From Octopus vulgaris (Eukaryota): DNA of 64,000 nt. Positions 3,300-43,057 of the stretch are shown here, piece after piece (position 1 is the stretch's first letter; each line of letters begins with the position of its first letter). Position numbers and translations under genes: made by a program. The stretch lies in NCBI GenBank assembly GCA_951406725.2, contig OX597824.1, positions 39,308,001 through 39,372,000 of the forward strand. Reading direction: 5' to 3'. Below the pieces are notes generated by a model that searched no databases, was not told the DNA's origin, and saw only the letters and a program-made list of their open reading frames with translations.

Positions 3300-3499
3300 T
3301 CAATATGTAACCGCGGGTGTATCGTTGGCGATTTTCTTTCTTGGACCTTTCCTTTTTCTATGTTTCTGACGAAGAGCTCCGCTCGAAACGTTAGATCTTC
3401 CTTCCTTCTTTCTTTTTCCGAGCGTCCAATAACACTATACTTGTTCCACGTCCTCGCGTTGTTGTGTCTTCTCTTTGTTCATGCTTGGATTAACTATGT

Positions 3500-19095: not shown

Positions 19096-19322
19096 TGTAT
19101 ATGTATGTATAAGAAAATTTCTATTTGCAAATCTCTCCACAAGTGACAGTTAGTAACAGTACTCTAGAGTAACGATTATTTGCCAACATAGCGTAGCAGT
19201 CGAATATTAGTGTTATTTAACACCAGGAAAGATCGTCTCCAGCTGGCTATACGATGCACAATCTGTTTCCTTATATTTTCGAAAAATGTATAAATATAAA
19301 TATATATATATATATATATATA

Positions 19323-25299: not shown

Positions 25300-25805
25300 G
25301 TCGGCGAGTTGGCAAAAACGTTAGCACGCCGGGCGAAATGCTTAGCGGTATTTCGCCTGTCGTTACGTTCTGAGTTCAAATTCCGCCGAGGTCGACTTTG
25401 CCTTTCATCCTTTCGGGGTCGATAAATTAAGTACCAGTTACGCACTGGGGTCGATATAATCGACTTAATCCGTCTGTCTGTCCTTGTTTGTCTCCTCTGT
25501 GTTTAGCCCCTTGTGGGTAATAAAGAAATAGGTATTTCGCCTGCCGCTACGTTCTAAGTTCTCATTCCACCGAGGTCGACTTTGCCGTTTATCCTTTCGG
25601 GGTCGATAAATTAAGTGCCAGATAAATATTAGGGTCGATATAATCGACTTAATACGTTTGTCTGTCCTTGTTTGTCCCATCTGTGTTTAGCCCCTTGTGG
25701 GTAGTAAAGAAATAGGTATTTCGTCTGCCTTCATGTTCTGAGTTCAAATTCTGCCTAGGTTGAATTTGCCTTTCATCCTTTCGGGGTCGATAAATTAAGT
25801 ACCAG
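25300..25805 (+). mobile_element. Head-to-tail array of three SINE family A units
   Basis: Full unit 25300-25530, then 5'-truncated units starting ggtatttcg at 25531 and 25715. Confidence 0.9.
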
Positions 25806-38483: not shown

Positions 38484-38652
38484 CAACATCGAAAAATACC
38501 TTAGGAATGAGAACCCAGGTTCGAAATTTCCCCAAGACACCTGAAGAAGGCTGGAGGGTATATCAACCGAAATGTGTTAACAACAAACAAGATGAGGACA
38601 AATATCTGTCGAATGTAAATAATGTGCATAATTCGTCATCTCTTAAATATAG
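38317..38652 (+). mobile_element. Chimeric element: tRNA-derived head + (AAC/AAT)n + hammerhead-like tail, with TSD
   Basis: A box tggcgtagtgg 38333-38343, B box gagttcgattcc 38376-38387, microsatellite 38407-38487, acac-CTGAAGA-a-ggctg..caacc-GAAA-t-gtgt 38537-38577. TSD aacagcaaataaa / aacagaaaataaa (38304-38316, 38653-38665). Confidence 0.7.
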
Positions 38653-39278: not shown

Positions 39279-39597
39279 AAGAAATATTACCTCTGGGTAT
39301 TAATTCTTTTTCTGTCGCTAATATATATTCCATATGAAAGAGTTTAATACCAAGTGAAACAGAAAGGCACCCATATCTTACACCTCTACTGATATGGCGC
39401 TGCTAATGATAGGCAAATCGCAATGTTATTTTTATGTAGCTATTTCCTTGTCGCAAGAACAGTGATTGGTTGTAATTTATTTTCTGTAGCTATCTGTAGC
39501 AGACGAGTTTCCACCACTGAGGAAAAGCACAAATAGCTCCAAACCGTACGGGACCACCAGACCGTACGGGACCACATCGGCTATCATTGCATTTAGA

Positions 39598-40090
39598 CAT
39601 AATCAAGGATCGAGCTATGGTGCTTAGTAAAAGACAGCCTAAAAACTTGAAAACATTACTAACAAAGGCAAAATTTGACCTCAGCAACAAAGACCAAACA
39701 TTCACGGTATCTAAATGCAATGATAGCCGATGTGGCACATGCCAATTCATACATACCGGTCAATATATAAACACAAAAACCGGGAAAATATTCACAAACG
39801 CGAATATGAACTGCAAAAGCAGAAATTTAATTTACTGCATCAAATGCCCAAATTGTGAAGAAATATATGTAGGTCAGACGGGAAACGCACTATTAGAACG
39901 CTCACGTGTACACCGGCAACAGATTAGAGACCCAGAGGTCCGTCAGATACCTTTGAGTAACCACCTAGCAACATGTGGTCGGAAAATATATATAATATTC
40001 TACAAATTACACAGCCCAAGTGAAATCGAGAGGAAAATCAGAGAAAAGAATTTTATTGATAAATTCGAACCCAAGCTAAATAAGCAATAA
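39598..40090 (+). pseudogene. GIY-YIG endonuclease domain of a 5'-truncated Penelope-like element (Neptune-like)
   Basis: KRQPKNLKTLL..CNDSRCGTC (Zn-finger-like linker)..MNCKSRNLIYCIKCPNCEEIYVGQTG..R..HRQQI..H..C..RKIREKNFIDKFEPKLN. The RT domain is absent upstream. Confidence 0.9.
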
Positions 40091-40992: not shown

Positions 40993-41483
40993 CTAATGGT
41001 AACTAAAAAAAAATCTTACTCCCTAGACACACAAATGCAAGCTTAACCTTGCATTATGAAAAACTCTGTTGCAAGGGGAGTCTCCGCATTGCCAAATGCA
41101 CATGCTTCCATTGAACTCCATGTTCATTCACATGCATATAACATGGAAGACAGTAGTAAATTAGATATTACATTACGAAATGCTACATTTTGACAAAATT
41201 TTCAAGACTAACCTTCTAAATGCGAACCTACACGTTACGCAAGTAATAATTTCATGATAATCTTGCCGTAACGTGGCTTTCGTATCGCGAAAGAAAATTG
41301 TTCCGTTTAATTCTGTATTCATTGACTTTTCATATAACGTGGAATTCTACAGTAATATAATTTCTGCGTTACGAAATTCCACATTAAGATATAATTTTCA
41401 GGAAAGGAGAATGTTTCTGTGACATGAGGTACGCCTACACAACAACAACAACAACATTAATAATAATAATAATAATAATAATG

Positions 41484-41542
<59 letters not shown>

Positions 41543-41925
41543 TAATTTTAAAAATTTTGACACCAGGCCAACAATTGCGGGAAGTGTGTAAGTCGATTGT
41601 ATCGACCCCAGTACTCAAATGGTATTTTTTTATCATGTGCTGTTTATCTTCATATGAGATCACCATATCGCACACATATGGCTATGATGTATATGCCTGG
41701 TGTACCCTTTCTACTAAAGGCACAAGGCCTGAAATTTTATGGAAGAGGGTTAGTCGATTTGATCAATCCCAGTACTCAACTGGTACTTAATTTACCGACC
41801 TCGAAAGGATGAAATGTGAAGTCGACCTCGCGGAACTTGAACTCAGAACGTAAAGACGGACAAAAATGCCACAAAGCATTTTGACCGGTGTGCTAACGAT
41901 TCTCCCAACTCGCTACTACTACTAT

Positions 41926-41972
<47 letters not shown>

Positions 41973-42007
41973 ATAATAATAATAATAATAATAATAACAA
42001 CAACAAC

Positions 42008-42072
<65 letters not shown>

Positions 42073-42082
42073 TAATAATAAT

Positions 42083-42626
42083 AGATGCAGTACCAGGCAG
42101 TGGCTCTCATGGCTTCTGATCTTAACTGATTGGAAGTGTTATCATGTACATTGTTTTGTCTTGGTTTAAAAGATGGGCTACAGCAAATATTCTGCTCAAT
42201 ACCACAGATTTGCTTGTCAGTTGTTTGACCTTAACCAGTTGAGCATGTCCCTTAGTGGCTGACGATATGTGCATCTCTGATCACGAGCAGAAGTAGTGGG
42301 GGAGCATCATAGCCATGTGTTGAGAAGGATTCTTTGGGGTTTGAATAATTCACCTCTGGAAACATGGGTGTTTCGTTCAACGTCCTTAAACAACCCTTAT
42401 TCAGGGACCTTTTGAGCGGGATGGGTTACTCGATCTGAAAAAAATTCTAACTGGGCTCCACCTGCAAGGTCATGTGCTGTTTATCTTGATATGAGATCAC
42501 CATGTCGCGCACATATGGTTGTGATGCATGTGCCTGGTGTACCCTTATCAGACGGGTAGTCATGATGGGTATACTGGGCTTCGTATATTTTACCCCAGTG
42601 TCACTTTAATGGCATGCTCTGCTCGC
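42083..42626 (+). mobile_element. (AAT)n-embedded non-coding element, possibly the 3' UTR of a TAA-targeting (Dong/R4-type) retrotransposon
   Basis: Bounded by AAT repeats on both sides. A segment (tcatgtgctgtttatctt.atatgagatcacca..gcctggtgtaccctt) recurs at 41633-41710. The family assignment is inference only. Confidence 0.5.
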
Positions 42627-42694
<68 letters not shown>

Positions 42695-42697
42695 GCG

Positions 42698-42759
42698 AGG
42701 CAGGCTACCCTGAACTGACGATGAGCAATACACTCAGAAACATATGTCTTCAGGTGCCT
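42698..42759 (+). ncRNA. Type I hammerhead ribozyme, intact core
   Basis: aggca-[ggctac bulge]-cctgaa-CTGACGA-tgag-caataca-ctca-GAAA-catatg-TC-ttcagg-tgcct. All core nucleotides are present, GUC cleavage triplet, predicted cut after 42748. Confidence 0.88.
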
Positions 42760-42991
42760 TGTCCCGGCTTGCGGGGGTGACTGCCTCCCCCATTGCAAAT
42801 ATAAGGACACAGAAAATGTGCCAAAGCCGACAGGAGACGTCGATGTTTCCTAGGGCTAAATGACGGTAGTGTAATTCCCTTACGGGTCTGTCACATTGTG
42901 TTGACAGTATACGACCACTATATCGCTCCACCACCGCTTATGTCTCTCTGAGACATTTAGAAATTCAATATTTCTAATAATAATAATAATG

Positions 42992-43057
<66 letters not shown>

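Follow-up and report, generated by a model that had tools for sequence, protein, structure and literature searches.

We describe here a 282-bp non-coding repeat unit of Octopus vulgaris that is headed by a motif which, by every sequence criterion tested, is a type I hammerhead, its cleavage being a prediction. The unit lies at positions 42694-42975 of the 64,000-nucleotide stretch analysed (hereafter the window), between two AAT arrays. In our preferred reading, to which we assign a probability of about one half, it is a dispersed monomer that descends from a non-LTR-retrozyme-like family and was probably copied by Penelope-like elements (PLEs), and its hammerhead would be slow alone and better as a dimer. 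With this unit, the known association of type I hammerheads with non-autonomous retroelements extends to one more animal lineage and one more repeat family. The rival explanations differ along two axes, namely what mobilises the unit and whether its hammerhead is active.

With a GC content of 47.9%, the unit stands in microsatellite-rich DNA of about 32-41% GC. Both of its ends merge into AAT arrays (42627-42694, 22.7 copies, and 42975-43055, 27 copies, as delimited by TRF) and its limits are therefore uncertain by one or two bases. The longest ATG-started frame that it contains has 39 codons. The element had originally been predicted to be non-coding, bounded on both sides by AAT repeats and of retrozyme size, and all three statements stand, 282 bp falling within the range of 150-450 bp. 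Non-LTR retrozymes are described as elements of 150-450 bp with less than 50% GC and without coding capacity (PMC7229834), and the unit agrees with them in size, base composition and non-coding nature as well as in its type I hammerhead and its many copies. We call it retrozyme-like, and not a member of that group, because the tandem arrangement was not found. A reading as a tRNA-headed SINE was dropped because no Pol III A and B box pair occurs inside the unit and no tRNA in the 64-kb window. A Pfam search of the 110 longest of the 348 complexity-filtered frames of the window, from which the GIY-YIG frame discussed below was run apart, returned two sub-threshold rows only and no host gene or intron context. 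The features of the unit and its surroundings are collected in Table 1.

Table 1. Features of the repeat unit, its flanking arrays and a related copy, in window coordinates
Feature	Positions	Strand	Remarks
5' (AAT)22 array	42628..42693	+	May be the target, a spacer or the end of the adjoining 544-bp segment
282-bp non-coding repeat unit	42694..42975	+	
Type I hammerhead, including distal helix I and loop 1	42699..42763	+	Assigned by sequence criteria
Loop 1, 5' side	42703..42708	+	GGC pairing with 42756-42758 plus unpaired UAC, or 6-nt bulge
Helix I, 5' arm	42709..42714	+	Partner 42749-42754
Core C3-A9	42715..42721	+	Position 7 is C; no variant at >=5% among copies
Helix II, 4 bp	42722..42736	+	Starts with U10.1-A11.1; 7-nt loop ending in A42732
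G12-A13-A14, palindrome 42740-42747 and C17	42737..42748	+	Predicted cut after 42748
Helix I, 3' arm, and U1.7 (42755)	42749..42755	+	
Variable linker	42759..42787	+	Other subfamilies carry a diverged form
Abundant 3' module	42788..42975	+	Terminal hairpin precedes the AAT run
3' (AAT)n array	42976..43053	+	One GAT in it
Old diverged copy of the 3' module, without hammerhead	19112..19289	-	Between (TA)n and (TACA)n; nhmmer E 3.3e-4

A renewed reading of the hammerhead recovered the core (CUGACGA, 42715-42721; GAAA, 42737-42740; GUC, 42746-42748) and the helices at the places originally predicted, including the 6-bp stem I, the 4-bp stem II and the 7-nt loop. Helix I, the open end, pairs CCUGAA (42709-42714) with UUCAGG (42749-42754), and helix II pairs UGAG (42722-42725) with CUCA (42733-42736). 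Helix III has 2 bp in the monomer and would have 8 bp in a dimer by way of a palindrome that had been noticed as CATATG and in fact spans 8 nt (42740-42747), not 6. A descriptor for the full type I hammerhead matched once on both strands of the window, at this motif, and none of 200 dinucleotide shuffles produced a match having at least 6 bp in helix I and at least 4 bp in helix II; a loose hammerhead descriptor gave a mean of 0.05 matches per shuffle.

Scored against a consensus taken from PMC3088659, the core is complete at 13 of 13 positions (C3, U4, G5, A6, N7, G8, A9, G12, A13, A14, A15.1-U16.1 and H17). The core-adjacent pairs 1.1-2.1, 10.1-11.1 and 15.1-16.1 are all formed, as U-A, U-A and A-U, respectively. 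The core had been called perfect, which is correct for the consensus positions but overlooks that pair 10.1-11.1 is U-A and not the usual G-C. G10.1-C11.1 is reported to be highly conserved in hammerheads (PMC4209133); natural hammerheads with U-U or compensatory variants at this pair are on record (PMC3088659; PMC2837043), and one of them, a U-U hammerhead from the axolotl, cleaves (PMC7229834).

The Rfam hammerhead models did not match the motif at the gathering score in the window or at E<=10, where 9 and 4 weak rows, none of them a hammerhead, were returned. They likewise gave no match in 10 of the 72 PLE loci described below, though several of these contain clear descriptor hammerheads, and the silence of Rfam therefore says little. 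Since the motif escapes these models, families of this kind would be undercounted by model searches. For the giant squid genome 235 Rfam Hammerhead_1 loci have been reported (PMC6962438), so that type I hammerheads have been noted in a cephalopod, as a count only in the available text of that source; the motif of our unit, in contrast, does not score against Rfam. Exact-pattern scans of viral contigs and prokaryote genomes found nothing.

The canonical metazoan type I hammerhead is described as having a helix I of 6 bp, a helix II of 4 bp, a helix III of 1-2 bp, a palindromic loop and a dependence on dimers (PMC4209133), and the helix sizes of the unit (6, 4 and 2 bp) together with its palindrome match this animal layout. 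Like axolotl HHR_Amex2/Rtz353 (as described in PMC7229834), the unit combines a canonical type I motif, a 2-bp helix III with a tetraloop and a weakened base of helix II, and it is similarly a non-coding unit of about 300 bp with a GC content below 50% and many copies. Unlike the axolotl retrozyme, it stands here as a single copy without tandem, carries U-A instead of U-U or G-C at 10.1-11.1, has AAT on both sides, and possesses a 3' part that is far commoner than the hammerhead part. The literature searched held no description of the family of the unit or of an AAT-flanked retrozyme; supplements, Repbase or Dfam may contain one.

In monomer folds, G5-A6-C7 pairs with the cleavage-site G16.2-U16.1-C17 (GUC) at a probability of 0.70-0.95, helix III forms at 0.00-0.11, and none of the four fragments folded leaves the core free; placing U at position 7 lowers the mispairing from 0.95 to 0.09. 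The energy gap between the active monomer fold and the minimum is 3.8-7.3 kcal/mol, depending on the fragment and the loop model, and is smallest with the UAC/U loop introduced below. On these models, a lone hammerhead RNA is predicted to be mostly in an inactive fold, to be slow alone and to perform better as a dimer. For comparison, axolotl motifs in which helix II or helix III is weak are reported to reach 6-22% cleavage in one hour as monomers, and the rates reported for the coral and mussel monomers are about 0.8 and 0.1 per min (PMC7229834).

The palindrome yields an intermolecular duplex of -7.0 kcal/mol versus +2.4 kcal/mol for the monomer hairpin, in keeping with the earlier suggestion that a palindromic loop III permits dimeric cleavage. 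When constrained to the active fold, the dimer has an energy of -48.2 kcal/mol versus -36.4 kcal/mol for two active monomers, while the free folds come to -51.0 kcal/mol for two monomers and -55.4 kcal/mol for the dimer. The active dimer thus lies 2.8 kcal/mol above two free monomers and 7.2 kcal/mol above the free dimer, tertiary energy not being counted; in a model that ignores this term, dimer pairing narrows the energy gap to the active fold but does not close it. One of nine predicted retrozyme dimers from Xenopus is reported to have cleaved in vitro (bioRxiv 10.64898/2026.07.22.740005). Fold stability exceeds that of shuffles only mildly, with z of -1.3 to -2.1 for the motif and -1.8 for the element. 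Folded as a circle without spacer, the unit is 59% paired, a figure that lacks a shuffle control and is not used as evidence.

Loop 1 has two near-equal folds in these calculations, and the outcome varies with the fragment folded. The 5-bp extension of stem I across a 6-nt bulge, as originally proposed, can be drawn and is favoured in two of six folded fragments (42696-42761, and 42694-42775 with a probability of 0.95), but has a probability of 0.01-0.02 in four of the six, the whole element among them. An internal UAC/U loop, closed by 42703-42705/42756-42758, has a probability of 0.93 in both the whole element and 42694-42770. When the second set of family variants is applied together, with linkage assumed from their similar frequencies, the internal-loop fold has a probability of 0.63 and the bulge fold of 0.0. 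A 14-nt inverted repeat (79%; 42697-42710/42774-42787) also allows the 5' arm of distal helix I to pair with the linker as a competing fold.

These alternatives matter for the contact between loop I and loop II. In solved extended hammerheads, the final A of loop II is the Hoogsteen partner of U1.7 (PMC11875169, PMC6155905), and both contact bases are present in our sequence, where loop II ends in A42732. U42755 (U1.7) is unpaired only in the UAC/U model; the 6-nt bulge fold of the original prediction pairs this base, which is expected to be free for the contact. A fast extended hammerhead, in which the loop I-loop II contact makes the monomer an efficient self-cleaver, would draw on the presence of these two bases (contact: PMC11875169), on the 3.8 kcal/mol that separate the active fold from the minimum with the UAC/U loop, and on the rates of the coral and mussel monomers (about 0.8 and 0.1 per min; PMC7229834). 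It must contend with a helix III probability of 0.00-0.11, a core sequestered in four of four fragments and the 6-22% reached in one hour by the axolotl motifs with weak helix II or III (PMC7229834), and we regard it as very improbable. The description of the motif as likely active is accordingly not upheld for a fast monomer, given a helix III probability of about 0, the pairing of G5-A6-C7 with GUC and the atypical pair 10.1-11.1.

Public sequencing runs provide a view of the wider family. Twenty of the 24 listed runs, from 10 studies and under four organism labels, contain part of the stretch, none of them at least half of its words, and the family analysis was made on contigs at least 80% alike from four of these 20 runs. 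All four yielded family contigs (97, 710, 744 and 578), of which 12, 92, 108 and 71 run past the ends of the element, as expected of an interspersed repeat. In total, 40 variable sites at >=5% were listed, and these are unevenly spread, with 2 in the 56 positions of 42703-42758, 7 in the 29 of the linker (42759-42787) and 31 in the 188 of the 3' part (Fisher p 0.006 versus the linker and 0.013 versus the 3' part, values that are not true probabilities since the copies are related). One of the two variants in 42703-42758 is in loop II (42731, C/G) and the other turns a G-C pair into G-U. The core and helices I, II and III have no listed variants, and U10.1, A11.1 and C7 are kept among the copies; the copies thus retain the core and the stems, the constancy looked for in the original prediction. 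Two-sided compensatory changes were not found among the copies. The lower variation of the hammerhead is suggestive of conservation, with the 80% filter favouring close subfamilies, and may stem in part from a young subfamily; five sites at 30-56% suggest two subfamilies. The retention of U10.1-A11.1 and C7 across copies offers a natural test of helix II variation and of monomer silencing.

The hammerhead might instead be a dead passenger, without cleavage in any form and carried along as the 3' module multiplied a young subfamily. The U10.1-A11.1 pair, the C7-dependent misfold (0.95, falling to 0.09 with U7), the missing Rfam match and the inactivity of eight of nine Xenopus candidates (bioRxiv 10.64898/2026.07.22.740005) would all suit such a history. 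We nevertheless judge it distinctly unlikely, as the 13 consensus core positions are intact and both changes within the motif are harmless while the similarly deep linker varies at 7 of 29 positions; natural U-U hammerheads at 10.1-11.1 have, moreover, been reported (PMC3088659), the axolotl one with cleavage (PMC7229834).

In the three large runs, the depth of the 3' part from about 42790 onwards exceeds that of the hammerhead part by factors of 10.9, 12.4 and 13.0, figures to be taken as ratios only, since summed depth is not copy number. The 3' 185 bases are also found without the hammerhead. In each large run, 12-14 contigs have loose ends before 42788 that by eye resemble diverged versions of the linker, and older subfamilies may carry hammerheads of their own. 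No tandem unit was found at the locus, which holds a single unit only, nor did a head-to-tail (go-back) joint appear in the contigs of any of the four runs; absence from contigs is not evidence of absence, since a long AAT spacer would be likely to interrupt their assembly. Three opposite-strand joints were seen, each in a single contig. By our own reading of the table, some contigs extend 218, 371 and about 1200 bases beyond the ends of the element, a hint that long AAT arrays do not accompany every copy. Three listed contigs share a 5' end at 42694-42695, one of which continues for ~1.2 kb at low depth, like unique flank, the orientation again being our own reading.

Remains of PLEs share the window with the unit, in the form of a GIY-YIG frame and two minimal-hammerhead relics (~38540 and 3366). 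The frame, of 189 codons at 39521-40087 (+), specifies a GIY-YIG endonuclease (Pfam E 6.6e-7) with a Zn-finger-like linker of two cysteine pairs; it is 5'-truncated and directly followed by a short TAA run. Its 21 longer relatives are mostly proteins with reverse transcriptase (RT) plus GIY-YIG, 37-62% identical, and RT plus GIY-YIG with such a linker is the Neptune/Nematis layout (PMC8557442). In 72 metagenome loci related to the frame, the hammerhead descriptor returned 19 rows in 18 loci, not all of them convincing and mostly of the short PLE type downstream of the frame; short type I hammerheads with a palindromic helix III lie downstream of the GIY-YIG match in L001, L003, L004, L005, L009, L024 and L038, and Rfam at its gathering score detected none of these. 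No PLE relatives were found in prokaryote genomes.

The neighbouring Neptune-type endonuclease was considered as a partner of the unit and found to be unsupported, given that nhmmer matched the unit to none of the 72 related loci at E<=10 and that an AAT/ATT run occurs in only two of them; several relatives precede (TA)n runs. The nearest PLE frame ends 2.6 kb upstream of the unit, with unrelated repeats between. As judged from the sequence, PLEs are present in this genome, and the PLE at 39521-40087 is unsupported as the partner of the unit.

The unit shares with the pLTR hammerheads of PLEs (PMC4209133, PMC8557442) a type I motif and a palindromic helix III. Inverted copies beside the 5' pLTR and a bias towards microsatellites are among the traits reported for PLEs (PMC8557442), to which the three single-contig opposite-strand joints and the AAT flanks of this locus may correspond. 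It could be asked whether the unit is itself a pLTR, or the 3' end of an autonomous PLE, in a 5'-truncated solo copy. Hammerheads downstream of GIY-YIG in 18 of the 72 related loci agree with this idea, as do the prevalence of single truncated copies reported for PLE hammerheads (PMC4209133) and the greater 3' depth, which resembles 5' truncation. In animals, however, most PLE motifs are minimal and have one more base between A9 and a conserved G10.1-C11.1 (PMC4209133), whereas the canonical motif of the unit lacks this base, carries U-A at that pair and possesses a complete loop 1; no RT-endonuclease frame is attached to the unit. Nor is there a coding remnant in or beside the unit, and three listed contigs share their 5' end at 42694-42695. 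No RT plus GIY-YIG frame flanks the unit, and the comparison with the 72 related metagenome loci revealed no homology to such a flank. We consider a solo pLTR unlikely. Dispersed retrozyme monomers with homology to pLTRs have been reported from Xenopus (bioRxiv 10.64898/2026.07.22.740005); our unit resembles these in being monomeric and interspersed in a genome that contains PLEs and differs from them in that no pLTR homology was found for it, the Xenopus study covering vertebrates, three insects and a coral.

In the preferred, retrozyme-like reading, a single unit would fold into an inactive form in which G5-A6-C7 blocks the cleavage-site GUC, and two copies would pair through the 8-nt palindrome into a double hammerhead, aided by the contact between U1.7 and the A of loop II, as the folding models suggest. 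By analogy with the retrozymes of newt, axolotl, coral and mussel, source loci with at least two units would be transcribed and cut after C42748 of each unit, and the released units would be ligated into small circles. The reverse transcriptase and GIY-YIG endonuclease of a PLE could then copy these circles into simple repeats. A circular RNA leaves no visible junction at the cleavage site, where ligation re-creates the sequence of the genome. The copy at our locus would be an end product and largely silent; a single cut would take away its first 55 nt, and it could therefore not reproduce itself unless uncut or paired. Against this reading stand the lack of a tandem, the lack of a sequence link to a PLE and the U10.1-A11.1 pair, which departs from the most conserved pair.

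A different mobiliser would be a LINE of the R4/Dong type that targets (TAA)n, with the unit as its SINE-like parasite, the 3' module serving for recognition and a captured 5' hammerhead processing read-through transcripts. AAT lies on both sides of the unit, which belongs to a four-array cluster (41458-43055), and the 3' module also exists without the hammerhead. At its 5' junction Dong adjoins preceding TAA repeats, and non-autonomous SIDEs headed by a ribozyme are known for R2 (PMC3774820), likenesses that the unit shares in its 5' ribozyme and its repeat junction; Dong-R4 has been recently active in Octopus vulgaris, with 5 families and 1129 insertions (PMC13282606). The HDV-like ribozymes of R2 SIDEs and Dong, however, cut at or upstream of the 5' junction (PMC3774820), whereas the hammerhead of the unit would cut 55 nt inside, and Rfam found no HDV-like ribozyme in the unit, the feature that would mark a SIDE. 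The insertion had been described as AAT-targeted, which fits this locus but not the old 3' copy in (TA)n/(TACA)n or the contigs that run hundreds of bases past the ends (218-1200 bases), suggesting short or no arrays in some copies. The Dong-driven explanation therefore strikes us as quite improbable.

Equally doubtful in our estimation is a retrozyme spaced by microsatellites, in which (AAT)n would separate the source units and C7 together with U10.1-A11.1 would silence the single copy. Double cleavage would then release a circle with an (AAU)n tract, which could anneal to nicked genomic (AAT)n and prime one round of reverse transcription. One such round would give exactly AAT-unit-AAT, its 5' end bearing the complete hammerhead. 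The discovery of AAT-spaced tandems or of a Dong partner would explain how a unit can be inserted together with an intact ribozyme. Were a (TAA)n-specific Dong/R4 LINE the driver in place of a PLE, a hammerhead circle would be riding a LINE clade known for HDV-like ribozymes, and mobile RNA would have a route for seeding microsatellites.

Several minor features of the window deserve mention. The region 41458-43055, in which three inserted segments (370, 544 and 282 bp) separate four AAT arrays, looks like an AAT-associated insertion hot spot. The 544-bp segment has AAT on both sides, contains no open frame of any length and matches 41633-41709 over 77 bp (91%). An imperfect inverted repeat (6 exact bases and more matches across a gap) flanks the 5' AAT array at 42616-42627/42694-42705; 89 of 20000 random draws scored as well in this post hoc comparison, and the repeat may stem from the 5' part of the element, in inverted form, or have arisen by chance. 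At 3366-3392 (+) there is a minimal PLE-type core with an extra base before a 4-bp helix II, in which GAAA is followed by a short palindrome; it lacks a convincing helix I. The segment 38320-38660 (+), which has a single copy in the window, opens with a head bearing Pol III A/B-box matches (38333) and continues through (AAC)n(AAT)17 to a degenerate minimal hammerhead near 38540; a possible identity is that of a tRNA-headed SINE which encloses a microsatellite and whose tail derives from a PLE. Finally, an abundant SINE-like repeat of ~180 bp forms a 2.5-copy tandem at 25347-25805, with more than 10 dispersed copies elsewhere.
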